NCBI GenBank assembly: GCA_951406725.2
Contig: OX597815.1
Location: 166,780,001-166,844,000, forward strand
Length of the DNA stretch: 64,000 nt
Direction: 5' to 3'
DNA from: Octopus vulgaris
Lineage: Eukaryota
Within the stretch, counting starts at the first letter, position 1; each line of letters starts with the position of its first letter. Position numbers and translations under genes: made by a program. The notes beneath the pieces are model-generated. The model had not been told where the DNA came from. It did not search any database and saw only the letters and a program-made list of their open reading frames with translations. Shown one piece after another: positions 2,817-24,411 of the stretch.

Positions 2817-3012
2817 TGTTGTGTCTGAGGAGAGCCATTTTCTTTTTGTGCCTTATAATTTAACACACTCACTAGTAAAATGACTATTGAAAAGGTTGCA
2901 AGACGCAACGAAAATTTTAGGAAAATAAAAATAAGAAATAAGTGGAAATTTTACCGGTGAGTGTGTTACATTATAAGGCACAAAAAGAAAATTAGTCTCC
3001 ACAGACACAACA
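2817..3012. repeat. Inverted repeat, ~65-bp arms (2817-2881 / 2948-3012), enclosing an HHR-like motif
   Basis: TTTTCTTTTTGTGCCTTATAAT.TAACACACTCAC versus GTGAGTGTGTTA.ATTATAAGGCACAAAAAGAAAA. Confidence 0.9.
2884..2920 (+). ncRNA. Hammerhead-like motif with U3:A8 core variant
   Basis: CUA-UUGAAAA-G-GUUGC aagac GCAAC-GAAA-AU-UU^-UAG. Stem II is a perfect 5 bp and stem III is palindromic AAUU. Confidence 0.5.
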
Positions 3013-4494
3013 CAACAGAACATGCTTCAACACACGAACTCATATAAATAATCTTGCAAACCAAATCCCAAAACGAAATAAATCAATTGTTAGAAAACAT
3101 CTTATTTCAATAGAGGTATTGCATATAGTTATACTGTTATTGGCACTGTTATACTATAAATCGTTGGTGTGGAGATGAGTCACTGCAATTTCTAGCGTCG
3201 AGTGTCCATCACTGACAAGACAAAGGAAATAGAAATCACGTGATCTGATGGTCTCAGCGCTGCAGATGGCGGGGATTTTTGTCCCCGCTAGAAATATAAA
3301 CAGGAGTGCATTTTGCCAATATGTGAGTTTCTCTCACGGAGTTTGTTTTAGCAGAATATTCACGTCTAAAAGGGGATAAATATTACCTCTCATTGCATAT
3401 AGTTTACTTCAATTCTTTTCCGTGACAGAAACAATACTTTTCAATCATTTCCTAATGGAGATGGTCTCAACTATTTAGCTATCTGAGATAGTTTAAAAGG
3501 TAAAGCATATATGTTATAAAGAAAAGTGAAATTAGTAAAACTACAGCATAAAATAATTGAAAGGATGGGGAGGCGAAGGTAGGAATTGTTCTGCAATAAA
3601 ATTATGTAAAGTATGTTGCCTTGATTAGGCAGCAAGCAAACCGTTAAATTATGCTGATCGCTGAGTAAAGGCAAGATTTGAAGGTAGAGAATTACTATAT
3701 TGGTCGGTGTAGGTGATGATTATAACTAATATAATTAAAAAAAAACAACAAACGATTCACCTCTACATGGGTGGAAGCAATGTAACAGAAGTTCGAGAGC
3801 CATGTAAAATTGTTCTTACTTAGCTACATTTTAGCCCTGGTTGAACAAACCTATTATCAAAGGCATTCAACTTTGGCCGCCATGTTCCTTTATGCATCTA
3901 GCATCACTTTGTTCAATATTTGCTCCTCGTTTTAAGTCAGTAGATGGTGATTTGAGGAAATTTAGCTGATATTTGTAACACCATGTTCAATTGCTAGCCT
4001 TGAACTTTCTAGCTAGTTCAATTGCTAGCCTTGAACTTTCCTGTTGTTACTGTATTAAACCAAGCTCAAATCTGAAATAAAAGATCTAAGCTCAAACCCT
4101 AAACTAAGAGATCTAAGCTTAAGCCGCGACTATTCCATATTTTTGAGGTTATCTAAGTTTATCTAATGTGGCCTCCCGTTTTTAAGATGATAGTAAGGTT
4201 TGATCGGAGTGAAATGTGTCTATTGTTTTTACAAAGTTGGGAAACAATGTGCCGACTACCTCGTCGCTTCTAATCAAGACGTTCGTAGTAAAATCACAAA
4301 AGTATGATTACTACAATGAGCTAGATAGTTTCGTTTCATGACACGAGATAGAGTCAAATGACTGTTAACGGTTAGTACTTGAGACAACAGAGAATGTTAG
4401 ATGAATCATGAAGAGAGTAATGTGTGTGCGCGTGTGTGTATGTACGTATGTACGTACATGCATGCATACATGCATACATATATACATACATACA

Positions 4495-4560
<66 letters not shown>

Positions 4561-5358
4561 TATATATATATTCCATGAATCATGAAGAGAGTAGTGTGTG
4601 TATGTATGTACGTACGTACATGCATACGTACATATATACACACATAAACGTACACACACACACACATATTTGCATGGATATCTATATATAATTTCTGAGA
4701 GTCTACACTCTGTTTTCTTTCTTTCTCCATCCCTCAATAATCCTCTACACTTTCCGTTTTTCCCCCTCCTTCTTGGCTGTACTCTTTCTTCCACTCTCAA
4801 CTATCTTTCGTTCTTTCTCCCTTCTCCTCACTTCCATTGTGTTGTTTCCTCATCCTATCACTTGTCCCCATTCTCCTCTGCCTGTAGCTCACACGTGACT
4901 ACTGGCCGTTTCTCTCACCCCTGTCTTTTCTGGACAAGACATTCACCGGCTGGACGTCAATTCTCTCGCCTCTCGGCACTTTTTCTCTTCTACTATTTTC
5001 TTCTCTTCTAATTGTTCTATTTCCTTGAAAAAATTTCTCCCAGGCGTTACCCATTACAATTCGTTTTAGCCTAACGGCCCTTGGTGTTTGTCTTCGACGA
5101 TTGTTTACTTTGTACGTTCACTCTGTTGTTGTTTGTTCGAAACCCTAACTTTCCCCAAATTTTATATTTTTAAAATTTCTAGATGCTGCTGTCTTATGAA
5201 GTCTTCCTTTTTTGTTAAGAGCAAGAAATAGGGAGTAGTAAAACAGTCGACAACTGACGAGCGAGTTAGTTTCCTTTTGGTATTTTGTCCTGTACTTATC
5301 TCGCGTGTGTTTACGTATTTTTCACCCGTTGGTGATGTCCTGTACTTAATGTGTATTT

Positions 5359-5445
<87 letters not shown>

Positions 5446-5493
5446 GTATATGTATGTATGTATGTATAAATTTATATAAATAGGGATAAGATC

Positions 5494-5536
5494 ATACAGT
5501 TTCGGCTGATATACCCTCCAGCTTTTATCAGGTATC
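5494..5536 (-). ncRNA. Degenerate copy of the 6519 hammerhead (G8A, stem III deletion)
   Basis: GAUAC-CUGAUAA-AAGCUGG agggUAUA UCAGCC-GAAAC-U-GUAUG. The flanks are homologous to 6525-6600. Confidence 0.6.
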
Positions 5537-5946
5537 TTGGGGAAATTTCGAACCTGAGTTCTCATTCCTAAGGTATTTTTCGGCGTACTTATTATTATTA
5601 TTGGGGGATAAACAAGATGAGGACAAATATCCGTCAAATGTAAATAATGTAAATATGGATAAGATCGTTATTTAAAATAGCGATTATATATAGGGGTCAG
5701 CATGGGAATAAAAACCTTATAGGTAATAATTATTATTAAAATTATAATTAAGTGTATCTAAAAGATACCACTATGCTAGAGATAGCAGTCAAAACTTGAC
5801 TTTAAAACTGCACCAAGTATTCATACAGAACCTGGAGAAAAGACAAATACACAAATAAACTCGCAAAAAATTATTGGATAATCCCAGATCTAAATATCAG
5901 GCTTTGCATAAAATGTACTTTGCATCATCACAGATAGTACATAGTT

Positions 5947-5993
<47 letters not shown>

Positions 5994-6518
5994 ATCCACA
6001 CACTTGTATTACATTAATCTCTTCATCATTCCTCTAGCGTCCTTTGTCTCAACATTAAGTATCACGTTATTTGATTCTCTCCCTCAGCTTCTGTCTGCTT
6101 CTATATGCACACGTACACACATATATATATATACATGCATATATACATAAATATATATTTACGAAAAAAGTGGAGGCACGTGGCTTAGTGGTTAGAAGTA
6201 TTCGACTAAATAAATGTGGTTTCGATTTCAGGACCGGGCGATGCGTTGTGATCGTATGCAAACACTTCATTTCACGTTGCTCCTGTTCCACTCTGCTGTC
6301 AATAATGAGTATGCCTGCGAGGGACCGGCGTCCTCTCCATGGGACGCTCCCCCCAAAAGAAAACTGGGAAACCGGTCTTATGAATCTACATGACTCAAGT
6401 TTATCCTCGCCTATTTTTTTTTAACACAAAACGGACACACAGTTCTATATTTAAGAGATGAAGAATTATGTACATAATTCGCATTTGACGGATATTTGTC
6501 CTCATCTTGTTTGTTGTT

Positions 6519-6564
6519 AACACAACGTTTCGCCTGATATAACCTCCAGCCTTCATCAGGTGTC
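6519..6564 (-). ncRNA. Minimal type I hammerhead ribozyme (PLE pLTR type)
   Basis: Minus strand: GACAC-CUGAUGA-A-GGCUGG aggUUAUA UCAGGC-GAAA-CG-UU^-GUGUU. Stem I GACAC/GUGUU, palindromic stem III ACGU. It lies downstream of a PLE RT/GIY-YIG fragment. Confidence 0.8.
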
Positions 6565-6644
6565 TTGGGAAAATTTCGAACCTGGGTTCTCATTCCTATG
6601 TTGTTGTTGTTGTCATTATTTTTATTATTATTATTATTATTATT

Positions 6645-6712
6645 ATTCTGGAATCGAACTCGGAGTCTGGGGGTTAGTAGCCCGCGCTTTTAACCACTAC
6701 GCCATATACCCG
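6645..6712 (-). other. tRNA-derived (SINE-head-like) segment inside the PLE 3' region
   Basis: TGGCGTAGTGGTTAA (A box) ... GAGTTCGATTCC (B box). No complete acceptor stem, so not a tRNA gene. Confidence 0.55.
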
Positions 6713-8139
6713 TGGGCAATTATAGAGTGAATTTTTAGGGCTTATAAATCTAATATTTTCCTATCCGCTCTTAATACCGGTTCCCATATGCTATTCATAT
6801 CTGCACTCGGTCTGCTTAGGAGGTTGTTGTGTCATAGCATATGTGCTGCTTCTTTTAGTTTTCGTATTTTCCAGTCTTTAATCATATTCTCTTCTATTGA
6901 AGGTTTTACCCGAAGGATATATTTGCGAAGTGTTGTTTTACTCTTGAATACTGTCCTGATGTCATATGGGCCGCATATCTTTTGTATCTTTTCGGAGAAG
7001 CCTTACACATAGAGTAGACCGAGTGGAGACAGTTTATTGATTTCATCCTCTCTTTTCTTCATAATTGGAGTAGATAGTATGTTTTTGGTGTAGTTGTTGA
7101 TTAATAAATTGCTACTGAGCTTGATCATTTCTTCGTGGTGGATATCATGATCGTTGCTTATAGTCTCGGCTCGATATTTTAGGCACTGAGTAATCTCTCT
7201 CTTTACACTGTATTGATGGTGGAAATTTAAATTAAGGTATCGTCCAGTGAAGGTCGGCTTGTGGTATACGGATGTCCTGAATCCATACTTGGTGCGTGTT
7301 ATTAATACGTCCAGGGATGCGAGCTGATTGTCTTTTTTCTTTTTACATTGTGAACTGTAGGGATGGCTATGAGTTCATATAATCTAATTGCACTTGAAAA
7401 TCTTCCTGGTGGGGCCATAGTATAAAGGTGTCATCAGTATATCGCAGTCATAGGGTTGGTTTTAAAGTTGAATAATGTAAAGACATTTTCGTCAGTCTTC
7501 CAGTTTTTCTCGAACTTATTATTATGGGGACACCATGGATATATACGAAATCATACCTCCAACCCACTCACATTGGCTCCTTCCAACTTGTAAATACCTT
7601 CTTGTGAGGAGGAGTAAATAAAAACTAGCAAAAACAGACACAATAAAAATGTTACAATGCTACATCCGCTCTGAACAAGCAGCACAATCATGACAACATC
7701 ATCGAACCTTTACCAAACTAAGATAAATCCCCAACAATAATTCTCCCATCACATACAGCCACCTCTACAAAACGAAAACACACACAAGATGAGGAACAGC
7801 AGGTAAACAAAAAGAAAACAATATCAACAAAACATACCTACCACAAACTTTGAGCTGATAAGGAGCTCTAAAAGAAAACAGGTGTCCTTCACCTTCACCG
7901 CACAAAGGGAGAATATTGAAACTGAGAAAGAGCCCTTCAGGTCCAGCGCTTACAAAGTGCCAAATGATTTGAAATTTAGGCAGGGCTTGGAAACATACGA
8001 AGAATTGAGGAAGAATTTCATCATTGATCTGGGGAACCCGAGTGCAAGTGACAGCAGTAGGCTCCTAAACGACTCCCCAAAGCAATCTTACAATTTGATG
8101 GAGACCGAGTTACTCGGTCTCTGGGTCCAGAAAACTGTC

Positions 8140-8825
8140 CGCACAGCTCCAGTGATTACAGGTACAGTTGCTGTTCTTAGGTGTTTCATTTTTAAAACCT
8201 ATGAACTTACTTTATTTTGTAAATAATTTTACAGAGGTGTTGCAGTCTGCTGGGATTGATATCTATAAGCAGACATATGTTGTCAACATGAATTGTTACC
8301 ACAATACCTGGTCTGTTGCCCCAAGAATAATAGGTAATGTTGTTGTTTTGAGATGCTACATTCTTCCGATTTCAATCTCCGGATCTTTATATTTACTCAG
8401 ATTTTCAAAGGTTTTCAGAGAAGTACTTTTGTCGGCTGGGCCCTGCAACATCAATCAGAAGACAAGTCTTTTCAATATGATTTTACACAATCAGATCAGG
8501 TTGGTTTGCTTGTATATCCTGATCAGTCGCAAATTAATAATCTCGTTTAATTTACTTTCTATCAAATTATGTAACCTCAGACAACACTTTCCGCAGGATA
8601 TTTACTGTTCCCAAAAATATTGTCTTTTAAAATGTGGTAATGTTGGGAGATTTTTTTGTTACCGACTCTCAAGTGTTCCAGTATCAATTGGTACCACTCT
8701 TAGTTTCATATTCCACATTCTCTCGACACCTATTTTCAAGTCTGCATATTTTACAATTTTCTCTTTTCTTTGTCGTTAATATAATAATCCGGGAAAGCTA
8801 CATCGATCAACAAACACCTCTTTAC
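8140..8825 (-). mobile_element. Three tandem decayed C-terminal REL-endonuclease fragments of R4/Dong-like non-LTR retrotransposons
   Basis: Minus translations: CLLIDISIPADCNTSVK..VPVITGA (8140-8285); QANQPDLIV..TCLLIDV..LSKYKDPEIEIGRM..TLPIILGA (8310-8560); CLLIDVAFP..VKYADLKIGVERMWNMKLRVVPIDTGTL (8665-8822). Confidence 0.75.
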
Positions 8826-8881
8826 AGCACAGTGTCTGACTTTACATGTTCAAATTCTCTGTCTGGACTGTTAAGTCTCTA

Positions 8882-9353
8882 GGAGATGGGCAGAATCGTT
8901 AGCACGCTGGACAAAATGCGTAGCAGTATTTCATCCATCTTTAAGTTTTGAGCTCAAATTCCGCCGAGGTCGACTTTGCCTTTATTCTTTCAGAGTCGAT
9001 AAAATAAGTACCAGTTGAGCACTAGGGTCGATGTAACCGACATATACCCTCACTTGAAATTTCTGGCCTAGTACCAAAATTTGAAACCATTATTAAGGTA
9101 GTGAGCCGGCAGAATCGGCTAGTCCCCTCCCCCAAAATCTCAGACAAAGTCGGAATCGTTTGCATTCCAATCAAAATGCTTAGCGGTATTTCGTCCGTCT
9201 TTATGTTCTGAGTTAAAATTCGCCTTTTATCCCTTGGTCTTTCATCCCTTGGGTGTCGATAAAATAAGTACCAGTTGATCACTGGGGTCGATGTAATCGA
9301 CATAACCCTCCCCCGAAATTGCTAGCCTTGTGCCAAAATTTGAAACCATAATA
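8882..9353 (+). mobile_element. SINE family A, tandem copies (others ~10763-10993+, 38480-38650-, 41010-41220-, 41381-41580+, 48170-48340-, 49115-49335-, 53640-54265- x3, 58830-59275- x2, 63352-63570+)
   Basis: tRNA-like head GAGCTGGCAGAATCGTTAGC...GAGTTCAAATTCC, core GTCGACTTTGCCTTTCATCCTTTCGGGGTCGATAAAATAAGTACCAG, often abutting (AAT)n. Confidence 0.85.
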
Positions 9354-9865
9354 GGTTTTAGTCGCTTCTTCTTCTTCTAGTGAACCGATCCTGCTGTCTC
9401 CTGAAGTTGTCAAGATGCTTTCTGCTGGCTTTCGCTTGTAAACGTTTGTAGAAAAACAACTGTCCTACGAATCTAATTACGATTATGGACCTATATTTGA
9501 CTTTGATAAAGCACACAGCCGAAAATTGAATAATATATTATTTCCGGAACACAGTGTTTATATTTGACAACATATAGTTAGTTTTGATTAATTTCGGAAT
9601 ATTTCTAGCTATATTAATGTCACCAGGAACAATATCATCATAGTGAAGTCTAAAAATATGTTATAAAGCTTTTAATAACATCATTTTATTTTAAATGCTT
9701 CAAATATTTCATTAAAATTTTCAGCACTGCCTCAACTTAGCATATAGTGCATCACGTTTTCACTCATAAATAGACAGATCCCTGGCTAACTTGTTGAATA
9801 GATTGGCTAATAAATAAGTTGAGGTCTGTATAACTTTCAGCCCAGACAGCAATCCCTATACACTG

Positions 9866-10333
9866 CATATTAGTTGCATTGAGACAACGAATGATCCTCT
9901 GTCTAGTCACTCAACCGGCTTGAAATAGCAATCAAATTACACTCATGTCATACCCACCGACTTAAAAAACGTATATATACATATATGTACATATATATAT
10001 ATTCATATATATACATATACGTATATATATGCATATATGCCCACATATACATACGTATTCTGTGGTATATGTATACAATTTCTTTCTACATGTTGATACT
10101 AATCGATGAAATAATATCGAATCATATGCAGACCGATGCACCACTCTCTAAATTTCATTTCATAGAGTTAAACATCTGAAGTGAAATAATCTGTAACCAA
10201 GATAAAAAAATCCCCCAAAAGACTCTATCATATTAGTTGCATTGAGACAACGAAGGATCCCCCGCCTAGTTACTCAACTGGCTTGAAATAGCAGTCAAAT
10301 TGCACTCATGTCATACTCACTGACTTACAAAAC
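9866..10333 (+). repeat. ~105-bp direct repeats (9866-9970 / 10229-10333) flanking a copy of 14340-14545
   Basis: CATATTAGTTGCATTGAGACAACGAA.GATCC...GACTTA.AAAAC occurs twice. The insert matches TCTGTGGTATATGTATACAA...GTGAAATAATCTGT.ACCAAG...GACTCT. Confidence 0.9.
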
Positions 10334-11881
10334 AGAAAGAACTTATTAGTTAATGTAAGTTTAGTTAATCCTAAAATATGCATGGTCACGCTAGAGATCA
10401 CTTCTTATCTACTCAATTGACATGCATTTTTTCTCAGACTAAAGAACATTGGTTTGAAATCGAATGTTTTTTTTTGTCTAATCTATAATGCATAATTATC
10501 TCTATCTTTGGTTGTTGACATGTAGGTAAAATTTCGCCAGTATACGCATTGCACGATATCAATTGACAAGATATCTTCTTACATCTATACCATTGGTAGT
10601 CTTATATTTTCTTTTGCCTTCTTTCACTTGTTTCACTCATTTAGTCGAATAGATCGATCTCAGTACTTCTTTGTCTTTTGAGTATAGCACTTAAACTATC
10701 GGTCACTTTTGCTGAGCTGCTAAATTAAGATGTAAGCAAAACAACACCAGTTGTTAGGTAGTAAGGCGAGCTGACAGAATCGTTAGCATGCTGGGCGAAA
10801 TGCTTAGCGGTATTTCGTCTGCCGCTACGTTCTGAGTACAAATTCCGCCGGGGTCGACTTTGCCTTTCATCCTTCCGGGGTCGATAAAAATGTACCAGTT
10901 ACGCACTGGGGTCGATATAATCGACTTAATCCGTTTGTCCGTCCTTGTTTTTTCCCCTCTCTGTGTAGCCGCTTGTGGGCAGTAAAGAAACAAGTAGGGG
11001 TGGGGACAAACACAAACACAAAATACACACACATAATGACTAACTTCAACATAGATTCTGTCTACCAAATTCACCGAGGAGGCACTGGGCAGCCCAGAGC
11101 GACAATAGAAAACACTTGCCCAGGATACCACGCAGTAAAACTGAACCCGAAATCACGTGATTGCAAAGCGAGCTTTTTAAGCACACAGCCATGTCTGCAT
11201 GTGGGTAAATTTTGAACTTGACTAGATTTTAAGGCTGTTATACTACTACGGTAATAGATTGTAAGTGCTATTTTTTCAAAATTCAAGATGAATTTTCCAG
11301 CTTTTCTGTAAAAACTTTAATTTCTTATTATGTATGAATCCTTACAAAACTTTTTTCATGGTCGCTAAGTAACAAGTCTAGTTTTCGGAATAACTAGGAA
11401 ACCAATCTACTTGTATTTGCTTTAGTTATAGAATTCCTAATAAAGATTCTAGATGTTTAAAGTCGTTCAATATTAGAAGTAGAAATTGCACATTTCAGCT
11501 ACCATTATAATCTTAGATAAAAACTGAGAGCGATCATGTGCACTTATTTGCTAGCAGAAAGTCAATGCCAAGGGTCCTACCGATGAAGTCTTTCTATACT
11601 AGATTCACTGAGATAAGGCTCAAGTCTGGCTTCATGCATTTTCAGTTCGCAAAATAACACACACACACACATGCACACACATATTCACACATAGTGAATA
11701 ATTCTCGACCGGTGCTTTCGGGGAATGACAGTCCCTGTCAATTCATATGTATACAATTATGTGGTTTGACTACAGTATTAGAACATTTTAGCTCTTATTT
11801 CTAGCAATGTAGGTTTTCTAACACCCTACTCATGCATAGTGATAATTATAGTTATACTTTTTGACAACACATTGCACACCG

Positions 11882-11935
<54 letters not shown>

Positions 11936-11950
11936 ATATATAATATATAC

Positions 11951-12033
<83 letters not shown>

Positions 12034-12526
12034 AGGCAACAGGTTGCTTGACCGCATACCGAAAAAATAAAAATAGCAGTCAAGAATGCTTATTTCTATC
12101 AAAGTTGGACAAAATTTTGGAGGGAAGATTTACGAATTCAAACGTCTATGTAGGTTTAGCTTTTGCTCACTTTCTTCAAATATTTTGATGTCGCATGGTC
12201 AGAAGGTTTGAGGTACGTAGCATTTGATAAATCTATGATAAATCTTTTTCAATGGAAAGCTGTGCTGAAGAAGGATGTGAAATATATATGCAATGTATAT
12301 GAAATATATATCAAAAATATATATGAAATATATATTCAATATGTTTATAATCCAGAAACATGATGTTCACAGATAACCACCAGACTTCGTTTTCGTTATC
12401 TATTCCTTCTGTTTTGCATATGTGAATTACAGGGTTTGTCGTGCCCGGAGTCCAACTTTGATAGAAATAAGCATTCTTGACTGCTATTTCTATTTTTTCG
12501 GTATGCGGTCAAGCAACCTGTTGCCT
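12034..12526. repeat. Inverted repeat, 77-bp arms (12034-12110 / 12450-12526), enclosing an HHR
   Basis: AGGCAACAGGTTGCTTGACCGCATACCG...AAAGTTGGAC versus its near-perfect reverse complement. Confidence 0.93.
12260..12372 (+). ncRNA. Type I hammerhead ribozyme with expanded stem II
   Basis: CUGUG-CUGAAGA-A-GGAU...(~73 nt AT-rich)...AUCC-A-GAAA-CAUGAUG-UU^-CACAG. Stem I CUGUG/CACAG is perfect, and stem III is ACAU/AUGU. Confidence 0.7.
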
Positions 12527-12719
12527 GTCCCTTTTTCTTATATACAATATATATACTGAACTTTTATCGTCTATTGTAGAAGACACTTGTCCAAGGTATC
12601 ACGCAGCGGGACTGAACCATGTGGTTGGTAAGCAAGCTTCTTACCACACAGCCACGCTTATAATTCACACAATACAAATATAATTGATTGATAGACGTCA
12701 ATATAAAAAAATTAATAAC

Positions 12720-13075
12720 AGAAGACGTTAAATTATTTTATTCTATTTTATTTAAAATTTCTTGCGATATAAAACAGATCTGCTTCATTAAGCTGTTTTT
12801 CTTGTTGAGATCTATATACACACAAGCTTAATGTATGATGTCAGCAGAATCCACACTCTCATCAAGCCTTTCTCTGTCCGTGTTTTTTTTTTGTAATTTT
12901 GTTATATTTGAGATACGGTTAGAAAACTTTAAATTAAATCAGTTCTCCTATACGTACAAGACGGTATTGTTTTTTTTTAAAACGTATATCTTTAAGAATA
13001 AGATGAATTGTATGTGACATGAAAAGACAGTTCCCGTTGAAATTCACGATTTAAATTCAAATGTAAAATATTAAA

Positions 13076-13135
<60 letters not shown>

Positions 13136-13287
13136 GATAATGATAATGATGATGATGAGGAATTCCGACAATGATGATGACGACGATGATGATGATGATG
13201 AGGAGGATGATGATGGTGATGTCATTGTTAATGAGACAGCTATATTTTGGGTAGAGCTACCGACATCGAATTTCACGATGCTTTTGC

Positions 13288-14181: not shown

Positions 14182-14224
<43 letters not shown>

Positions 14225-14290
14225 TATACATACATATACATACATATATATATACATACATATATATATATATATATACGTATATATACA

Positions 14291-14338
<48 letters not shown>

Positions 14339-14916
14339 TATATATGCATATATACACATATACATAGGTTTTCTGTGGTATATGTATACAACATCTTTCT
14401 ATATGTCGATATTAATCGATGAAATAATATCGAATCATATACAGACCGATGCACCACTCTCTAGATTTCATTTCATAGAGTTAAACATCTGAAGTGAAAT
14501 AATCTGTTACCAAGTTAAAAAAGAAAAAGAAAAAAGAGACTCTCCTGTACACTAAATTTGATTTCTTTCATTTGAAGAATATGTGTCAAAATTTTCAAAA
14601 CGTGTCAGCCAAACTGCATTAGATCGAACGAGAATCCACTACAAAACATCAAAATACTATTTGTGTTCATGTAGTTTGTTTGTTTGAAGGTATTTGTGCA
14701 AATGCTTTGGATAGTCTTACCCAAGAATTCATTTCCATGACCACTAGAATTATTTTCAATTTAGAATAAAACAAAAACCGAAAAAAGACAGTAAATTAAT
14801 ACTATTAACTGACAGATATAGATGTAAAGATTGAATTTTACACTCTGTGATATTTGCATCAATGTGATGGAATTTATAGCTTAATCTTGTTAAAAATCTG
14901 CTAGACAATTGTAGAA

Positions 14917-14961
<45 letters not shown>

Positions 14962-15906
14962 AATCATATTTTGTTTCTTTGAAAATATTTTACTTTTCAA
15001 CGTATTGAATAATTATTGATATATCATAGCTGTATTCATCTGCTTTAAAACATACATACGATGTCGTGATGTAGAAAACACTACAAAAACAAAGAAAAAA
15101 ATAATAACTAAAACAACGAGAAACTTACATGAAATTAAAAGTTTTTAACAGTCAATTGTATGATACAAGATATACTGTTAATTGATTTTTACATGCATTT
15201 CTAAGCACCAGTCTTGTTGTGCTGAATTGAAAAGTTCGAATATTTTGTATTCTTGGAATATTCCCAAGAAGTTCTATTTCAAATGATAATTTCTAATCAT
15301 CATTTATTATTGTTGATAAAACGAGAAAAGTTTTTCCTCGTCTTTCTTGTAATAGAGGCACAGTTTTACTTTAACTAGAATCTGATGTCTACTCTACACA
15401 AATGTGTGATTCATAAAAAAAATGTTTTTAATGAAACGCTTGGACCTGTACACAAACAACTCTTTAAATGTCATAGGATTTGATTTTCAGATTCATGTAA
15501 ATTAACATGCTTTTTGTCACCTTTTATTCAATTTGAATATCTCTGTTTAAACCCCGACTCTGCATTTTCCTCTTTCACCCTAGTCACACACTCACACATT
15601 CACATACACATATCTATGTATATATAAAAATCATTTGAAAGCATTAAAGTATCATTAGATTTTTTTCTCCGAAGTTTTAAACAAGTGTTTTAGAATGCTT
15701 TCTTTTTCAATTTCTTATATTTCACAATCACTAGTTCATATACACAAGGGGTTTTCATGTAATTGTACTTTTGAGATCAACTGTTTCCTTACAAGAGGAA
15801 GGAATTTCGATCTACCGAAGTTTATCGTCAATATTAATATTAATATCATTATTATATATTTATATATATTACAAATATATATATATGAAAAACGATTTTA
15901 AATGTT
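12720..15906 (-). other. SoxE: Putative SoxE 3' UTR (extent uncertain)
   Basis: AU-rich, SINE-free stretch after the stop. Minus-strand AATAAA at 15523-15528, 15303-15308, and paired at 12747-12752/12737-12742 followed by a U-rich tract. Confidence 0.4.
13074..13445. repeat. Compound microsatellite (AAT)n-(ATGATA)n-(GAT/GAC)n-(TA)n-(GA)n-(TG)n; representative of dozens of TA, CA, TATC and CATA tracts
   Basis: Direct reading. Confidence 0.95.
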
Positions 15907-16868
15907 TCATGTATAACGTTCCCATGGTTGTTCTCCAGGTCCTGCTGCGACGATGGGGTTAAAGGTTTGTCTAGCCATTGTGAGATACTGATAAGTCGGT
16001 GGAGAAGGATTAGAAACTACTTGTCCATTATGGTTTGAGTAATATGTTTGTTGGTGGTTTGTTACTGGGTATATCTGGTCATCGTTCATAGAATAACGAG
16101 ATGTTGTATTGTCATATTCTTCATATTTGTTTGTTTCGCAACGGAAGTGAGGCGGCAGTGGTTGCGGTTGCGCATGGGGTGCTGGTGGTGGGGGTGCTTG
16201 TAGGTGTTCCAGTTTGATGGTTGCCGGGGAATTAGGTTCGCGGAACTTACATTCGTTTTCAGCGGCTGTTGTATAAACTGGTCCGCGATGATGATGTCCT
16301 ATGTTATTAGCGACTGCACCATTGTTAGGGTTATTCGTGTTGTTCGAATTGTTCACATTAGCATTGTTGGCATTGTTGTTTGGTACCATATTAGAAGCCA
16401 TTCCTATGTGACCGTTGGCCGCTTGATGTGCAGGTGGTGGTTGCTGTTGCTGCTGTTGCTGCTGTTGTTGTTGCTGTTGTTGCTGTTGTTGTTGTTGCTG
16501 TTGTTGTTGCTGTTGCGATGATAAATCATAAGGAATGCTGGTTGGGCTTCCATTATTGAAAGGCTGCACGCAAGCACTTGCAGAAACTCGGTAATTGCTA
16601 GTCCAAGTAGGAGCAGTAGAGACAGCAGTCGGGCTGACCTGGTTGTAGCACGTATATCCGTTATCAGACTGGGCTGCTGCGGCGGCCGTGGCAGCTGCTG
16701 CCGCCGCAGCGACGTTATGTTGGTGCGAGAGGATGGCACCTGGATTCATTGCCAAATACTGGTCAAGTTCATGGTCATCAATGTTATCCAAACTCATTAC
16801 TTCATTTCCAAGTTCACGTAGATCTACCCGACTAAAGTCGATGGGGTGGGCCTGGGAATGTAATCCTC
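15907..16868 (-). CDS. SoxE: SoxE last coding exon: K2 domain, polyAla, polyGln, SUMO motif, C-terminal transactivation tail
   Basis: Acceptor tttcag ends at 16869. Phase 1 joins in frame with the previous exon (962 nt = 2+960). Translation HPIDFSRVDLRELGNEVMSLDNIDDHELDQYL matches the SoxE K2 motif (IDF..VD..EL..V......D..E.DQYL). It also contains IKLE and ends EQPWERYT*. Confidence 0.95.
16441..16515 (-). repeat. Coding CAA/CAG repeat, 25 Gln
   Basis: 25 consecutive ttg/ctg triplets on + within SoxE exon 3. Confidence 0.95.
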
Positions 16869-17964
16869 CTGAAATACATAAATATTTAGATCATGAGAAG
16901 TCTTCTAACCAATGATTATAAAAATAAATGAAGATGTTTCATATAACTAGATGCAACGTAAAGGATTGCCTTTCTTTATATCTATTATGTACTAAAGATA
17001 ATATTCTGATCTTCAATCTCTTTTATTGCTTTCATTTCTAATTTGCCAGTAGCTACTTGTCATACTGAAACCTAGTGTAATATTCCCCCTGTGCGTCATA
17101 GAAGGACTCTTTACTCGTGTCGGATAGAATGTTGTTTGATATAAAATAGGTGGTGGTTGGTTGTGAGGATTGAATAAAGAGGTGCATGGATTGCAATGAT
17201 CAATATATTTAAAAAAGTCATAAAAATTTTAACTTGTTCAACATCACAACAAAGGAAGATGAAATATGTAAATGCACATTCTATTTTGTTTTGTCATTAA
17301 TAAAGAGCGAATGTTGCATTTTGATATTTTTGTAGCTCTTTATTTTCTGAGTTCAAATCCTGCTAAGGTCAATTTTGCCTTCCATCCTTCCTAGGTCGAT
17401 GGTGTCGACTAACACCCTCACCGCAAAATAGCCGACCATGTGCTTAAATTAAAAATTCTTAATAAAGAGCAATGAGTAAAAAATTTTCCTATTATTTTAG
17501 AGGGGATGACCAATTATTTGTCAGTTTGAGAACCCCTTATCTAGAAAAGTAACGCTTACTTGTTCATGGTAGGCCATCATTACATGTATGAGTGACAAAA
17601 AAGGCCGCGTGCCAAACAAAAAGCCTTTATTTACGTTCGTTAACGTTCTTGGTTTGAATCCCACAAGAATCGATGTTGTCTTTCCCAGGATTGATACAAC
17701 GAATATCAGTCATAGAGATATCATCTACAACAATTGACCAAACCAACATCTCCTTTATTATTTATGAGTTCGTGCTAATGTGGGAATACTCAAATTTACA
17801 AATCAAATTCGGGAAGTCGACAAAAATAAGAACTTTATTTCTAAAGAAGCATATCCATTAAATATGCTATCCTATATATTTCTATAAAGATAGATTATAA
17901 CTAAAATCAAATGAACTAGGTAGAAGCACATTTTCGTTATTTTAAACTTCGTCGAGACACTTAC
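16869..17964 (-). other. SoxE: SoxE intron 2 (1096 bp, GT-AG)
   Basis: GTAAGT donor and TTTCAG acceptor join the two exons in frame. Confidence 0.92.
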
Positions 17965-18311
17965 CCATGCTTCTGAGACGTGAACGATCTGCCATGCATT
18001 TTATAAGTTCCTGCTGATTTGGTGTAGTTGGTGGAGTCGGTGGCCCATGTGAGCCGTTATGAGGACTTGAGCAATTGCTAGACTCGCCATCACTCATATG
18101 TGGAGTGGGTGAGTTCTGAAGTGACTTTAACATCATGCCTGGTGGGAGGTGGTGCTGTACATCGACTGATCCTGAATTGCTAACGCCAGAAGTTTTGAGA
18201 GGTTTCCGACGACGCGGTTGGTATTTATAATCGGGATAATCTTTTTTGTGCTGGACTCGTAGACGCTCGGCTTCATCAATGAAAGGTCGCTTCTCTTTTT
18301 CATTTAATAGT
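17965..18311 (-). CDS. SoxE: SoxE (Sox8/9/10-like) internal coding exon: C-terminal half of HMG box plus GPPTPPTTP motif
   Basis: Manual translation: (R)[37 protein letters not shown]...[15 protein letters not shown]...RSM(G). Acceptor tttttgtag ends at 18312 and donor GTAAGT starts at 17964. Length 347 nt = 1+345+1. The phase-2 intron at LWR/LL is the conserved SoxE HMG intron. Confidence 0.96.
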
Positions 18312-20726
18312 CTACAAAAAAAGGAAAGGAGGAAATAATTTTATTGAAGCTATATTAACTATCCAGTATTACAAACATGAAAGCAAACTGAAAATTAAGA
18401 AAAAATAATGCTATAAAACATTCCGCAAACTCTTAAATTATATTACTCATAAAAATAATTATTTGGGTCATCAGACATTTTTCCATTACTTTCTATAAAC
18501 ATCATTGTGAGAACAGTTGGTAAATATAATACATTAATATTATAAAAAAGGGAACTACTCAGGTTTATAACTGAAGTTGAAATAAGAAATTGTGACATGC
18601 ATGCCTTTCTCAATTTCTGAGGAAAGGTTTTTACTTGAGATCACTATTATGTATATTCATTTTCCTGTAAGTGTACCACCTTAACCTGGAGTTTAGCGAA
18701 TGCTGGAGCATCTGTTTCAGCAATACCCTTTTAACGGAAATCTAAGAAAGCTAAGATGATTGTAATCGCTTATTTTAAATTTTATAACGGTGGCATGTTT
18801 TGTCTTTAACCATGGATTCCATCCCCAAAGAGAATCTCACCTAGACTTATATGAATGTTAGACATCGATAATAAATTACATCACAGTCAAACAACGCAGT
18901 CTAATAAATTCGGTGGGGTTTATTAAATGATTATGCTTTAAAAGATTTTAGTTGTATCAATAAAATTACATTGACAGCACATGGGTTAGTGATCTAATGG
19001 ATAAAGATATCATTATATTTTAGAAGTAATAGTTCCTTGTTCGGATCCATCCTGGTACGGTTTACACAACCAAGAATAAGTTCTCTGATGGTGATCAGGG
19101 AACAGATTGAAACATAGTACAGTTGGAAAATCTTTCGTCATTAAAGATGACGATAAAATTTTATTGACAACAATTCATTTTAGATATTGAATGAAATTTT
19201 CTTTTTATGTAATTAGATATTGACAGTAAACCCAACATATGTTTCATTTAAGCCTCTTATAGAATGCAATTCAAATGAAACTCATGAGTAACTCTTTCTT
19301 TTACCTACTGATAAATTTCAATATAAAGAACAGTTGAATTATTGTTTTGGGTGGCTTAATTAAGTAATTAATAATCTATTCATGAAGATGACTTCACAGA
19401 AAAATGCTGTTAGAAGACAGAGTGTAAAAGTTCTTTCTCCGAAGTAAGCCAAGAGAGAGTGGTGGTGAGGGGCTGTGATCTTTAATGTAGAAGAAGAACC
19501 TTATACAAACTAGGATTTAAAACCAACAGAACGACTTTCTTTATACGAAGGCCTCTATCATATTCCTTTTACATATTCGTATAAATATGGATGTTTCAGA
19601 CAGCTAACGAATACACGCCAAATTCTTAGGTTTGCATGATTAAATCTGACCAGAGCTGCACAACAACAACAACACTAAACCTAAGCTTTGCAGAAGAATC
19701 GCTTTTCTGCTACTTCTATATCACAAGACAATCTTATAATCTATCTGAGTGTTTTAACATCTGTTGCTCCGCTTGAGGCCATCACTGATCTTAGCGGGAC
19801 AGAAATTCTAAGAAATTAATACGGAAATTTGTTGTTTTGCTTTTCTTTAATCTCTTGTACTACTATTCTTTCACAATATCGTGCCCATTTTTTTTTTATA
19901 ATCTCAAAATATAAATTGCAAAATTACAGAATTCCATTGCAAAAGCATATCAAAAGAAATCCAAGCTGGGAAGCCCAATTCATTTAAACTGCAATGTCAG
20001 TATATTATATATTTTGGCATTTGACCTATTTGCTATTAAGGGGTTTTAGTAATAATACTCCCGACTTATCTTCTTGATCATGAAGCAAAACGTGGTAAGA
20101 AATTTCATGTCACAACAGGAGCGAACAGACCCGGAAGTAGACGAGGAAATGTTTTATAAGTATCTTTTCCTTTCCTTCGGGATAGGTGTCCAGCTGGTAA
20201 AGACGACATTTAAAAGAGGATAGGCCGTCATCACATGTCATTATGGTTAAAAGCTGCACTATAATCTAACATTAGGACAGTCTGTTTCTTGGGCTTACGC
20301 TTGCTGAAAAATGGGTCATTTCAGCTACATTCAAACAACCCATTACCACTACCACCACATAAAAACAAATATAAAGCAAATAATGTAACAAGACAAAACA
20401 AAACAGGGAAAGAACGCTAGATATCTGTCAAATGTTTTGATAATAAGACAGGCGCACGTTCTCAAAATACAACTCAGAAAAGTGAATCAGTGAAGAAACA
20501 AAAAAGAAAAAGAAAAAAAAAACGACAGCAAACAGTGGTGTTTGGTTGGAAATCAAACTACACAGGCCACGAAACGATGTAAAAAAAAAAAATGAAAGAA
20601 AGAAAAAAACAGTCTATCGTATCAAGTGTTGATACATTTTAAACTGTCTCCCTTTTAATAGCCACATCCTTACTTACACGCATACCTAATACATACACAT
20701 ATCAGATTTATATTGATATAGGTGCG

Positions 20727-20805
<79 letters not shown>

Positions 20806-20822
20806 GTATGTATATATATATT

Positions 20823-20853
<31 letters not shown>

Positions 20854-20962
20854 GTATATATATATGTATGTATATAGTGTGTATGTGTATGTATAAACAC
20901 ATTTTTGTATATATTCATACTTACAAACATACACGTTTTTTATGTATATATGTATGTGTGTG

Positions 20963-21044
<82 letters not shown>

Positions 21045-22336
21045 GTATGTGTGTGTATAAACACATTCTTGTATATATTCATACTTACACATATACACGT
21101 TTTTTATGTATATATGTATGTGTATATATATATATATATGTATATGTATATATCACCATTATGTGTGCGTGTATGTGTTTCCGTCTTTGTGAGTGCTTAT
21201 GTGTATAAACATTTATAGTGGTGAAAATACATTTTCTTTCGTAAAAAACTGATATAATTCTCAGAGGAGAATCGTAAGAATAAATATATAGACCAAAAAA
21301 AAAAAAAATACCAGAAATATCGAAAAACAGGTAAACAACACTTAGATAAAGGACAACCGCAAGATCATTTGAAGAGTAGCAACTGTCGAAATATAAACAA
21401 CAACAAAAACGATGTCGGTGTTCATTTTAGACCTATTTTAGAAACTAAGATGGCGACCTAAATATTTATCATATTATGTATGACATTCAGCATTGTGTAA
21501 GATGAAAAGTAAACACCCGAGTCGAGATTGTACTTATATTCACTCGGTACAGTTTTTGGTAAGAACTAATTAATTTAACATGAACCATTTTGCCGTTAAT
21601 AATACTCTGTTTAAAAGAAGCTAACGTAGTCAGCTGATACACTAGCAACATCAACCAAATAAGCCTTAAATCACAGCCCATTGTTTTAAATACGAATAGG
21701 ACGTTAAGCCCCATTAAATACTGTGAAGCCATTTTGTAGCCCTAAATATTCCTAGAGACAGGGTATGCTCATGGCTGGTATGTGTTTGATAATAGCTTTA
21801 CTAGACTAAGGTTGGCTCAGGTCTGAACAACAATCGTCTGCTAAACGAGGCACTACATACTAACTCGATCTGCTAGAAATAGCAGCGTAATGTGTTACGA
21901 GATATCATAGTTCACTATATAACTTATTTCAAAGCTAACTCTACTGTTTTAAAAAGAGAAAGATTCGTAAGATAATGTAGTCCTAGACACAATATGTCTG
22001 GAAACGAGACACGGCAGATGAATAGGGCCGAAATATTCTTATATTCTTACGATGGTGTTTTAGTAATCCGGACCAGTATTCAATTTCAGTTCTTGGTTGA
22101 AGGTAATTCCCATTTGTATACTCGATAAAAGCAAGGACATCCCTCATTCTCTGGCGTAGAAAATTTGTGATCTACACTTGCGCCAGGGATTAATATATTT
22201 GGTTTCGATCTCCCAAAGGAGCAGCTTCGCTTCAATTCGGCCCCTTCACTATTTTCCTCGTCCTTTATTCGTACACATTACCCACGTGAGAAAATAAAAT
22301 AGTTGTACTGTAAGACTTCAAGAAATGGTCAAAAAT

Positions 22337-22404
<68 letters not shown>

Positions 22405-23291
22405 GCTCTCACACATAATACACATCCATACACACACATATACATATGTATATTTACTTTCAATAAATGTAGGACTAATGTTTGGGTGGTCATAAATAAG
22501 ACGATCGACTTAAGTTATCTTTTACTGATTCATGTGTTACGGGATATCATGGGAACGATGTAATTGGAGAGAATTTTTGGTAGAGATCACTATGCTGTGT
22601 AAATACCAGATAATTCTTAAGCACCAATTCGTAACTCAACTGAAGATCCGGAAGGTTAGAACAGATGAAAACTTTTTTTATATCGTGTGATTAGCTAAAT
22701 GGTTTTAAGAAAATAAACATATAAACACAAAAATAAAAAGAAGTTTTAAAATAAAATAAACTTGGAAAAATAATGTTATTTTTAGAAATAAAAAAATAAC
22801 TGTCATTCGGTTCTTTTTCGTCTTTCATCTTCTTGTGTACGAAGAAACTTAATAAAATATTTAATATGACCGAGAAGAGAGAATTTCTAAAACTGATAGA
22901 GTAGTGCAAAACTAAATGACTCTTGGTATTCTGTTTCATCTTGCTGCGTCCTGAGATCAACTTGGTCTAACGCATTCCTCTTCGGTCTTCTAAATGAAAC
23001 ACTAGTTTCGATTTAATATACCACCATATTAAACAAAATTTAACCTCTGGGTTCTATCTAAAATACCATAAACGTCAACAAACAAGAAAATATTCCAGAC
23101 AAATAAATAAAACAAAAACGTAGAGAGAAGCAATAAATGAATAGATGATCAGAGCCAAGACATTTGTACAGTACGTTTACAGAACAATATGGTGTATTAC
23201 CTATACTTAACATATAATGTTTGCATATTAGTTCGCTTCACAGAAAACCCTATACAAATATATTGCATTCCCCAGCAACATTCTGAAGGAT

Positions 23292-23497
23292 TTATGGAGA
23301 TATACTTGCATAGCAAGTGACCTGATCTGAGATCGTGTGCCGGAACGAAAACAATTGCAGCGTGGAAGGTGTTTATAAGCCATTTAAGAAACACACAAAA
23401 TCCGTTAGATTCACTACAACATTTAAATTTAATTTGTCAAAATACTTTCGTTACTTTGAGACCGCGACCTGTTCAATGACAAAATTCCGTACTGTAT
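23292..23497 (-). mobile_element. 206-bp non-coding insertion with 13-bp TSD carrying an HHR-like motif
   Basis: Direct repeat CATTCTGAAGGAT at 23279-23291 and 23498-23510. Confidence 0.7.
23433..23483 (-). ncRNA. Hammerhead-like motif with variant/decayed core (UUGAACA)
   Basis: Minus strand: UUUGUCA-UUGAACA-G-GUCGC ggucucaaa GUAAC-GAAA-GUAU-UU^-UGACAAA. Stem I is a perfect 7 bp. Confidence 0.5.
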
Positions 23498-24411
23498 CAT
23501 TCTGAAGGATGCTAACTTGATTATCTGCAGACCTCCAATTTTCGAAACAGTTATTATCATCTGTTAACTTCTTTCGATTTTGTCAAATTTCTTTTTCTAT
23601 TTCATATGAGATTCGTTAGCGGTATAGGATGCATTCTCTTTCCCTGAATCAGAAGCAAAACAAACAATATTGCTAACAGCAAAAAAGAAAAGAAAAAAAG
23701 GGTTTCTTGTTGTCCCTGACTTTAAAGGAACAGTCTTACTAACACTATTTTTGTTTTACTAGTTAGTCGTGGTCGGAAGTTCAGTATCCATGAACCTTTA
23801 TTTATCTTAGTTCCTCTCTAGCTGGTTGAAGGAAGGTACTTATCCTCATGTCGGGCACTTTGCTCGAACCCATACAACGGGGCAAATTACACAAGACATC
23901 CAAGGACCAGGCGGTTGGGGTTAACTCGAGCAGAAAGGTATCACCTAAAAAATCAGTGCTCAAGGTGCTGGACGCAAGTTCCCCAGATCCGTCCCTCTGG
24001 ATTAATATCATATTTTATTGACTTTAGAAAAGCCAAGAATTCCAATCTTAATTAACAGTGGATGAAAACCGGTTGCTTTACGTGATATATCAATACTATA
24101 AATTAGAATACGATTATTTTACAGAGGCCAAAAGCAAACAAAATAATTTTTAATTTTCCTTCTTTCATACGTTGTTCATTCAGTAATATAGTTTGCATTG
24201 TATTTTGCTGATTTGGTCAAGCTCTGGTAAGTTTGTATCTAAGTGAAAGCCTTTCCTTTTTGAGCCAATAAAAATTGAATTGAATTGAATTGAATTGAAT
24301 TAATTGTAAATATGTTGTGCTGATTTCAAAATTCACGCTCTAATATGCTTTCGTAATAGACGTTACTCACATGTTCTCTTACATATCAGAATGCAACCTT
24401 TTTCCCTTCTG

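Follow-up and report, generated by a model that had tools for sequence, protein, structure and literature searches.

Hammerhead ribozyme cassettes at an Octopus vulgaris locus as probable 3' ends of truncated Penelope-like elements

Hammerhead motifs and their cassettes

The DNA analysed here, a 64-kb stretch of the Octopus vulgaris genome that we call the window, carries four complete type I hammerhead ribozyme (HHR) folds and one partial fold, every one of them mutated. The hammerhead-like cores lie at 2887 (+, U3A8), 5531 (-, partial), 6559 (-), 12265 (+) and 23476 (-). All five had been named in an earlier, sequence-only reading of this DNA and all prove to be real, the one at 5.5 kb being partial and the remaining four complete but mutated. 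A strict descriptor finds zero complete hammerhead folds in the window, and a relaxed descriptor, which was drawn up once the candidates were already known, recovers four of the five named cores plus one weak extra at 9763. With stem I of at least 5 bp, the relaxed descriptor gives three matches; over 100 block shuffles the average is 0.16 and the highest count 2. Hammerheads are absent among the Rfam matches listed for the window (150 of 447), and Rfam reports none on 6400-6800. The motifs follow the minimal plan of Penelope-like elements (PLEs), with a base after A9, unlike the canonical type I HHR, which by the definitions in PMC4209133 and PMC7229834 is that of retrozymes and has a 6-bp helix I, a 4-bp helix II and a loop-loop contact. 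The sequence-only reading had further placed the motifs in four unrelated contexts sharing a layout of inverted arm, HHR and direct arm. The contexts reduce to three lineages, since a weak alignment connects the 2.8 kb and 23 kb cassettes (score 41; the best of 100 shuffles reaches 39), and the layout is present in full in two of the five cases; an inverted arm is missing from the copies at 6.5 kb and 23 kb, and the 5.5 kb copy has one but lacks the direct arm behind the HHR. TSDs were found at three sites, 2.8, 5.5 and 23 kb.

In the 2.8 kb cassette, a type I minimal hammerhead (2884..2920, +; U3-A8 core 2887-2893) has a 5-bp stem II, a palindromic stem III, U at position 17 and a stem I down to 3 bp. 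It is followed by a 3' segment (2921..3077, +) made up of the arm, 2948-3015, and an A/C-rich extension (3018-3077, A+C 73%) that is limited to the 3' side of this cassette. The inverted copy that had been noticed 5' of the ribozyme is indeed there (2814..2881, -), 68 nt long and 88% complementary to the arm. A candidate TSD has its left copy at 2802..2816 (+) and its right copy at 3078-3092, with 13/15 matches and about 0.003 expected by chance. The 23 kb cassette is bounded by the 13-bp TSD previously described, at 23279..23291 (+) and 23498-23510 (about 5e-4 expected by chance). Its hammerhead (23433..23483, -), also type I and minimal, has a 7-bp stem I, a U3, C8 core with the 3-8 pair broken, a decayed stem II, a near-palindromic stem III and U at position 17; the insert starts 14 nt upstream of it, and its 141-nt 3' segment (23292..23432, -) is the part weakly related by sequence alignment to the 2.8 kb cassette.

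The 12 kb cassette is built around a type I hammerhead (12260..12372, +; C3-G8 core 12265-12271) whose shape is that of the minimum-energy fold (z -2.57), with a 5-bp stem I, a 4-bp stem III with a 1-nt loop and U at position 17. This ribozyme closes only at 12354-12372, past a stem II that an 11-13-nt repeat has lengthened to about 80 nt, and there is an extra A on either side of this stem, including one before GAAA. The 3' arm (12450..12526, +) has the expected inverted copy 5' of the ribozyme, at 12034..12110 (-) within (TA)n, over 77 nt at 99%; a protein search with the arm gave no match. Arms so nearly complementary, possibly ending near the same point on both sides and set in (TA)n, could also be the terminal inverted repeats, of about 80-90 bp, of a MITE at a TA site that had captured a hammerhead or contains one by coincidence. 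We consider this very unlikely. Between the arms there is a full type I fold, positioned and oriented as a PLE 3' end would have it, and its stem III, with a 1-nt loop and U at the cut, follows the plan of the Hydra-clade PLE hammerheads, which prefer (TA)n.

The 6.5 kb element and its link to Penelope-like elements

A decayed, 5'-truncated PLE frame (6742..7490, -) retains RT motifs 5-7, the thumb, the linker and the end part of the endonuclease; about 60 GIY-YIG codons are deleted from it at 6875/6876, and other copies carry sequence at that point, as seen from a loose end at 6875 in all four of the sequencing runs described below. The relatives of the frame are RT proteins with a C-terminal endonuclease, and in one of them, P0082, both RVT_1 and GIY-YIG are over the Pfam cut-offs. 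RT 5-7, thumb and endonuclease tail are collinear with P0033 and P0064, and the RT-EN linker, which contains one cysteine, is collinear with P0033 by alignment. A type I minimal hammerhead (6519..6564, -; C3-G8 core 6559-6553) lies 180 nt past the stop of this frame; it has a 5-bp stem I, a 4-nt palindromic stem III, one mismatch in stem II and an additional base after A9, and its predicted cut falls between 6524 and 6523. The interval between frame and ribozyme holds a tRNA-like module (6646..6717, -) and an (AAT)n/(AAC)n microsatellite (6596..6647, -), and behind the ribozyme come the 3' arm and optional tail (6439..6518, -), with family ends at 6465 and 6439.

The 5.5 kb copy combines two pieces of this family in opposite orientations within a single TSD (left copy 5477..5493, +; right copy 5650-5666, 16/17 matches, the first bases of the right copy possibly being derived from the arm). 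One piece (5499..5602, -; 84% to 6527-6629) runs from microsatellite and spacer through the hammerhead to GAAAC, and its core, 5531-5525, has G8 changed to A and is accompanied by incomplete stems III and I. The other is the 3' arm in reversed orientation (5610..5655, +), matching 6512-6467 at 91%, which bears out the inverted arm reported at 5610-5652. This is an internal inversion like that of L1 twin priming, the model to which we liken it, and it differs from the published inserts of PLEs of the Penelope/Poseidon clade.

The 5.5/6.5 kb family represents the 3' terminal part of a PLE, probably one of Penelope/Poseidon type. The cassettes had been proposed to be non-autonomous, retrozyme-like families mobilised by PLE RT from decayed ORFs at 6.8 kb and 48.7 kb. 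The PLE link is even stronger than that, the 5.5/6.5 kb HHR belonging to a PLE itself, and the retrozyme-like description is not supported for this family, which is continuous with a PLE ORF. The 6.8 kb frame holds up as a decayed PLE ORF, and that at 48.7 kb is no more than a weakly matching remnant of a PLE-type RT (best E 5e-8) with no HHR attached. Among 152 RT relatives fetched, six open with an antisense sister HHR/arm fused at varying points to a sense RT, five of them with scores of 48-70 and the sixth with 42, where shuffles of the same frames reach at most 32-44, and one further relative runs from the RT into a sense HHR.

We think it likely that the cassettes are 3' ends, each a pseudo-LTR (pLTR) with hammerhead, arm and tail, of several PLE families, 5'-truncated and often 5'-inverted. 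A PLE gene is directly linked to the 5.5/6.5 kb family; the cassettes at 2.8, 12 and 23 kb, to which no parent ORF is attached within the window, are assigned by inference. One or more of these three could instead belong to ORF-less, retrozyme-like families whose short or circular RNAs serve as templates for PLE enzymes; retrozymes have been proposed to derive from pLTRs (bioRxiv 2026.07.22.740005) and are found in mussels (PMC7229834), and the 23 kb insert begins as close to its HHR as a unit-length copy might. We regard this as rather improbable. Self-comparison of the window reveals no tandem HHR units, the hammerheads are of the minimal type that PMC7229834 gives to PLEs and not canonical, the 5' junctions vary (5, 14 and 150 nt upstream of the HHR) as under random truncation, and the sole family open to testing proved to be a PLE end.

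Truncation, strand-switch joints and the tRNA-like module

Depth, ends and joints were taken from contigs of four public runs matched on 6400-8200 (X3, X4 and X12, which are DNA, and X9, guessed to be RNA). Depth over the HHR exceeds the single-copy level about 10^5-fold, which is not a copy count. In X3, summed depth relative to a single-copy contig is about 88,000 over arm and HHR, 13,000 over the tRNA-like module and 11,000-8,000 over the ORF end, then 2,300, 900 and 180 farther 5', reaching single copy above 7498; the same stepwise fall from the 3' end is repeated in X4 and X12. HHR/arm depth is thus 7-9 times ORF-end depth in the three DNA runs, a ratio that varies with how well the diverged 6.5 kb copy catches contigs and whose HHR bins may be swollen by sister families. 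The microsatellite region 6596-6654 was left out of the count, and because the step between HHR and ORF end lies within it, a distinct short family whose 5' end is fixed at that place may exist. Two discrete 3' ends, 26 nt apart, stand at 6465 and 6439 (139 and 225 contigs in X3), where the contigs pass into unlike, AT-rich flanks; X4 and X12 have the same end sites. Five of the 15 joints listed (out of 164) are strand-switch joints that connect arm or HHR to points at 6706-7447, of which three fall within the ORF. The short contigs of this family show no tandem ORF-pLTR-ORF unit. The strong 5' truncation that the depth gradient of the three DNA runs displays, the discrete 3' ends and the inversion joints into the ORF together make dead-on-arrival, 5'-truncated or 5'-inverted PLE insertions the most likely account of the 5.5/6.5 kb family, rather than retrozyme families.

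A mechanism can be proposed from the anatomy of the inserts and from PMC11167929. The GIY-YIG nuclease would nick both strands of AT-rich DNA in a staggered manner, giving the 13-17-bp duplications, and RT would begin in the arm that follows the hammerhead, at one or the other of two fixed positions, giving two 3' ends, and mostly halt after 100-300 nt. The second nick would prime another short cDNA that joins the first head to head, so that a second cDNA from the same start site would yield an inverted arm and one from an internal start the 5.5 kb geometry. Templates would mostly be uncleaved RNA, and the ribozyme, predicted to be weak and to act as a dimer in tandem parent transcripts, would be a passenger of the pseudo-LTR. 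The single mutated hammerhead copies are probably inert.

It is also conceivable, if rather doubtful, that self-cleavage shapes some insertions, with RT copying the short 3' cleavage product, the second nick priming on the 3' end that cleavage creates on the 5' product and joints clustering at the cut. The break in the 5.5 kb copy surrounds the predicted cut (6524|6523), lying between positions that correspond to 6512 and 6520-6527, and in four of the five strand-switch joints among those listed the short side lies at 6506-6521, which has p of about 0.02 for an assumed uniform range of 6495-6600, or 0.07 if two joints are one event. However, the joints listed are 15 of 164 and were selected by software, depth is equal on either side of the cut and no loose end occurs at it among the rows listed. 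The arms at 2.8 and 12 kb end 30 and 83 nt before their cuts, the six inverted pieces in sister-family proteins enter or cross the HHR, although longer pieces are easier to detect, and no RNA reads ended at the cut in PMC11167929.

The tRNA-like module has box A at 6704-6694 and box B at 6659-6651, both intact and at tRNA spacing; the D arm is retained and the anticodon and T stems are decayed. The box A/box B pattern, taken from the usual consensus, has 1 match versus 0 in 100 shuffles; ARAGORN and Rfam make no tRNA call on 6646..6717. Bridging contigs in X12 and X9 join the module to the ORF end. Beside ordinary truncated copies of the 6.5 kb family there might exist a Penelope-dependent SINE, in which the module would serve as an internal Pol III promoter for an RNA of about 280 nt (head, microsatellite, HHR and arm) that the PLE enzyme would copy in trans. 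This reading is in our view unlikely. The boxes have stayed intact although the tRNA stems decayed, and one T4 run (6573) occurs in the 279 nt of sense strand between head and 3' end, with none there in the 5.5 kb copy. Over the module, depth exceeds that of the ORF end by a factor of 1.2-1.8 in the DNA runs and of 2.6 in X9, the ratio of HHR to ORF end is 21 in X9 against 7-9 in the DNA runs, and Schistosoma has promoter-plus-hammerhead SINE-like elements (PMC6765202). On the other hand, there is no loose end at the head (about 6717) among the rows listed (24 of 2,037), and plain 5' truncation accounts for the modest depth excess. X9 is presumed RNA and contig depth cannot order expression, and the module may be a passive SINE that inserted into the 3' UTR of the parent. 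We give a small chance to the fuller proposal of a very abundant cephalopod Penelope/Poseidon family whose pseudo-LTR holds, immediately ahead of the hammerhead, a functional Pol III promoter of tRNA origin, with a head-HHR-arm RNA copied in trans and 5.5 kb-like inserts that record cleavage in vivo. If true, a Penelope-dependent SINE would have arisen within its own autonomous parent, offering a traceable path from PLE to retrozyme or Schistosoma-alpha-type elements.

Relation to known hammerhead-bearing elements

Nothing indicates a role near SoxE: PLEs make up 6.83% of O. vulgaris, so that some 4 kb would be expected in 64 kb, and the pieces identified in the window total about 2.3 kb. Nor does the description of them as undescribed in cephalopods hold in general: an Octopus bimaculoides PLE hammerhead is tabulated in File S2 of PMC8557442, and 235 hammerhead loci have been reported in the giant squid (PMC6962438). 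That octopus element, Hydra-1_Obim, resembles the 12 kb motif in its 1-nt loop III, U at the cleavage site and (TA)n target but differs in sequence from the cassettes of the window, and five short cassette motifs have 0 exact matches in File S2. Minimal HHRs, U3A8 cores, inverted 5' copies and one octopus PLE hammerhead are already in print. The paper of Cervera and de la Pena (2014; PMC4209133) describes single minimal HHRs from truncated PLEs, with an extra base after A9 and U3-A8 cores. The pLTR hammerheads of metazoan PLEs given there share with ours the type I fold, short stem I, base after A9, palindromic minimal stem III, U3-A8 variant and mostly single occurrence; the families of the window were not found in the accessible parts of that paper, and the 12 kb stem II of about 80 nt, grown by local repeat expansion, and the extra A before GAAA differ from it. 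On this reading the cassettes are ordinary PLE debris, and a lone hammerhead flanked by inverted arms marks, in animal DNA, a truncated Penelope insertion.

An inverted 5'-truncated copy and an optional tail are known features of PLEs (PMC8557442), and Anolis Poseidon has two RT start sites, priming on both strands and uncleaved RNA as its main substrate (PMC11167929). The 6.5 kb family shares with these EN+ elements of the Penelope/Poseidon clade an RT followed by a C-terminal endonuclease, an apparent lack of a cysteine-rich linker, an HHR near the 3' end, strong 5' truncation, an inverted 5' copy, two 3' end points and AT-rich targets. Its tail measures 26 nt, compared with 30-40 bp for the published optional PLE tail, and it differs in adding a tRNA-like module and a microsatellite between ORF and HHR. 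Animal non-LTR retrozymes (PMC7229834; bioRxiv 2026.07.22.740005) likewise have a short non-coding stretch, a type I HHR and a tie to PLE pLTRs. They consist, however, of tandem units with canonical HHRs and circular RNAs and are independent of a coding region, whereas the window has single minimal mutated motifs, inversions and TSDs, and the 5.5/6.5 kb family runs on into an ORF.

Being so numerous, the insertion joints of the 5.5/6.5 kb family could show at little cost whether reverse transcription ever proceeds on RNA that a pLTR hammerhead has cut, and whether a SINE driven by Pol III can move with the help of PLEs. A tRNA module in a PLE pLTR was not found in the literature outside Repbase and subscription journals, and the box A/box B module between ORF and HHR of the 5.5/6.5 kb family is new to our searches. 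The nearest parallels are the Schistosoma alpha SINE-like elements (PMC6765202), with a Pol III-type promoter module ahead of the hammerhead, and the tRNA-bearing Helenus TRIMs (PMC10886601), with a Pol III-type module inside the terminal repeat. In the accessible parts of these papers neither is described within an autonomous PLE, whereas the 6.5 kb module lies in the 3' region of a PLE that encodes its own RT.

Hammerhead motifs and their lineages

All five hammerhead ribozyme (HHR) or HHR-like cores proposed by the sequence-only reading are present in the window, at 2.8, 5.5, 6.5, 12 and 23 kb. A strict HHR descriptor finds no complete hammerhead over the window. A relaxed descriptor, which was designed after the candidates had been seen and tolerates an extra base behind A9, a single mismatch in stem II and a long loop II, recovers motifs at 2887+, 6559-, 12265+ and 23476-; it also gives a weak additional match at 9763. 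In three of the relaxed matches stem I is at least 5 bp long (100 shuffles gave 0.16 such matches on average and never more than 2). The four recovered motifs all share U at the cleavage position and a stem III that is palindromic or nearly so. Damage to these motifs includes a stem I down to 3 bp at 2.8 kb, one mismatch in stem II at 6.5 kb, an extra A ahead of GAAA at 12 kb and a broken 3-8 pair at 23 kb, while in the 5.5 kb copy G8 is replaced by A and the motif stops after GAAAC. The minimum-energy monomer fold is a hammerhead at 12 kb only, where stem II is enlarged to ~80 nt; the non-hammerhead folds of the 2.8, 5.5, 6.5 and 23 kb motifs are expected because these motifs are minimal or decayed. 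Within loop II of the 12 kb HHR, an 11-13-nt AT-rich repeat has expanded (12276-12349), and the expansion folds as a single long hairpin without disrupting the core junction. Rfam over the whole window gave mainly microsatellite matches to miRNA models among the 150 of 447 matches listed, and only chance matches on 6400-6800; exact pattern scans of metagenome contigs (two) and of viral contigs (one) gave no matches.

The cassettes had been placed in four unrelated contexts, a count that our sequence comparison reduces to three lineages: 5.5/6.5 kb, 2.8/23 kb, whose members are weakly related and both carry U3, and 12 kb. No ORF could be linked to the 2.8, 12 or 23 kb pieces; the 12 kb arm (an arm being the segment 3' of an HHR) had no matches as a protein query. 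A shared inverted-arm/HHR/arm architecture had also been suggested. Inverted arms do surround the HHR at 2.8 and 12 kb, but the 5.5 kb insert differs, consisting of a sense arm and an inverted upstream piece within one target duplication (16/17 matching). This geometry is like that of L1 twin priming. The 13-bp duplication reported at 23 kb is confirmed (13/13), and the 2.8 kb cassette probably has one as well (13/15). In a structure test of the arms, none was significant (z -1.4 to +0.75).

The 6.5 kb copy and its tRNA-like module

On the minus strand, the 6.5 kb copy reads as a decayed frame (~7490-6742), a tRNA-like module (6717-6646), a microsatellite, a spacer, the HHR (6564-6519) and the arm. 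A search among 1.84 billion representatives gave reverse transcriptases (RTs) of the Penelope-like element (PLE) type as the best relatives of the frame. With two of these (P0033 and P0064) it is collinear through RT motifs 5-7, the thumb, the linker and the last endonuclease helix, with ~60 codons missing. Pfam gives no match for the frame's own 123-aa RT piece; a longer relative, P0082, exceeds the cut-offs for both RVT_1 and GIY-YIG, and another, P0122, falls just below them. The linker between RT and endonuclease is without the cysteine motif that, in PMC8557442, defines Neptune and Nematis, an absence that tentatively points to Penelope/Poseidon. The decayed PLE ORF claimed at 6.8 kb thus stands, whereas at 48.7 kb we find a weak RT remnant (48703-49065, plus strand, E 5e-8) with no HHR beside it. 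Another weak and old PLE-type RT remnant lies at 57159-57347 on the minus strand (E 4e-4 against the fetched relatives), without an adjoining hammerhead. One candidate for an inverted 5' part of the PLE, 7500-8150, was rejected because it is at single-copy depth in the public runs X3 and X4 and is matched by none of the 152 fetched proteins.

The tRNA-like module, between the PLE ORF and the HHR, has full box A and box B sequences, a combination matched once in the window and never in 100 shuffles. Its stems are decayed, and neither ARAGORN nor Rfam calls it. It recurs in many copies, from runs carrying three different organism labels, and contigs of X12 and X9 span both the module and the ORF end. 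On the sense strand behind it there is one T4 run, which is missing from the 5.5 kb copy. The module may be either a SINE carried along passively or a functional Pol III promoter, two readings that its depth, 1.2-1.8 times that of the ORF end, does not tell apart.

Truncation, inversion and a possible role of cleavage

Contigs of four of 24 public runs were aligned to 6400-8200 at 80% likeness: the DNA runs X3 (organism A), X4 (B) and X12 (D), and X9 (A), presumed to be RNA. Three organism labels had high shares among the listed runs; no listed holder of the sequence was given as an RNA run, which says nothing about expression. Relative to a single-copy contig, summed depth in X3, usable for shape and as an order of magnitude and not as a copy number, is ~88,000 over the arm and HHR, 13,000 over the tRNA-like module and 11,000-8,000 over the ORF end, falling further 5' to 2,300, 900 and 180 and then to single copy above 7498. 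The corresponding values in X4, from 3' to 5', are 113,000; 24,000; 13,000-7,000; 2,000; 1,000; and 150. This profile is that of a single retroelement whose copies start at the 3' end and are for the most part truncated. In the DNA runs, HHR depth is 7-9 times that of the ORF end, and the step between them falls in a microsatellite skipped by the depth analysis; a short derived family is therefore also possible.

Loose ends whose AT-rich flanks differ from one another pile up at 6439 and 6465 in all three DNA runs. These ends fit the optional tail of PLEs and two RT start sites, although the tail here is 26 nt, compared with 30-40 nt in published PLEs. A further loose end, at 6875 in all four runs, marks the site at which the nuclease core is deleted from the 6.5 kb copy. 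Of the 15 joints listed (of 164), five switch strand, joining arm/HHR to 6706, 6707, 6875, 7153 and 7447. In sister families, antisense HHR/arm is fused to sense RT at varying points at the start of six of the 152 fetched RT relatives, and one relative reads from RT into a sense HHR. Together, the strand-switch joints and the antisense starts identify the inverted arm as the general PLE 5' inversion, in which the direct copy breaks off at any point from inside the ORF to just a few bases ahead of the ribozyme.

A mechanism for such inversions is suggested by work on Anolis Poseidon. As described in PMC11167929, its protein nicks both strands of AT-rich DNA and extends both, reverse transcription has two internal start sites, both behind the HHR, HHR cutting requires the protein, and insertion is independent of that cutting. 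By extension from this account, staggered nicks would leave the target duplications, a first cDNA would give arm, HHR and truncation point, and a second cDNA, primed at the other nick, would give the inverted arm. Whether ribozyme cleavage also shapes some inversion joints is a minor lead. The break of the 5.5 kb insert falls around the predicted cut, and four of the five strand-switch joints listed end 2-17 nt behind the cut at 6524|6523 (p 0.02-0.07 under an assumed range). However, depth is equal on either side of the cut, none of the 24 loose-end entries listed (of 2,037) lies there, and sister-family inversions extend into or through the ribozyme.

Genomic setting and relation to published systems

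The window consists of animal DNA rich in microsatellites and has several other repeats. A decayed frame at 8160-8780 (minus strand) may be the end of a LINE that carries the restriction-like endonuclease, and a LINE-type RT fragment at 31400-32030 (plus strand; Pfam RVT_1, E 6e-12) adjoins an assembly gap. Related pieces at 34898-35707 and 42639-43316 carry transposase-like reading frames and are DNA transposon remnants, one pair being 84-87% alike. An inverted pair at 43290-43608, with arms of ~115 nt, may be a MITE or another PLE end, and no hammerhead was found between its arms. Further inverted pairs lie at 33431-33587 and at 50578-50872, the latter formed by a SINE-like repeat present twice in opposite orientations.

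A SoxE gene (Sox8/9/10-type; named relatives molluscan Sox8/Sox9) lies on the minus strand with exons at 17966-18328 and 15910-16878; its first exon was not located in the window. Relative to this gene, the cassettes are found 3-13 kb beyond the stop and 5 kb ahead of the HMG exon, and cassette-derived RNAs near SoxE had been suggested. PLEs make up 6.83% of the O. vulgaris genome, in 190 families, according to PMC13282606. Five stubs per 64 kb therefore need no special cause, and with no enrichment here we reject a tie between the cassettes and SoxE.

The cassettes resemble published elements in several respects. PMC4209133 describes minimal HHRs, the additional base behind A9, cores of the U3-A8 type and single motifs left by truncated PLEs, and PMC8557442 covers the PLE tail, truncation at the 5' end and inverted 5' copies. 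The suggestion that such elements are undescribed in cephalopods is not upheld, since the O. bimaculoides element Hydra-1 has a hammerhead, tabulated in PMC8557442, that carries U at its cleavage site, and 235 hammerhead loci are reported in giant squid (PMC6962438). Nor do the cassettes match retrozymes as described in PMC7229834 and bioRxiv 2026.07.22.740005, where these are tandem units with canonical HHRs, an arrangement absent from the window. The motifs are genuine, the likely mechanism is a known one, and the cassettes are new family members. Repbase or an O. vulgaris repeat library may already contain these families. What is unusual in the 6.5 kb family is the promoter-like module. Among the papers listed by our literature search, none reports a tRNA-derived module in a PLE. 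Related combinations are known elsewhere: SINE-like elements of Schistosoma combine a promoter with an HHR (PMC6765202), and TRIMs carry tRNA modules within their LTRs (PMC10886601).
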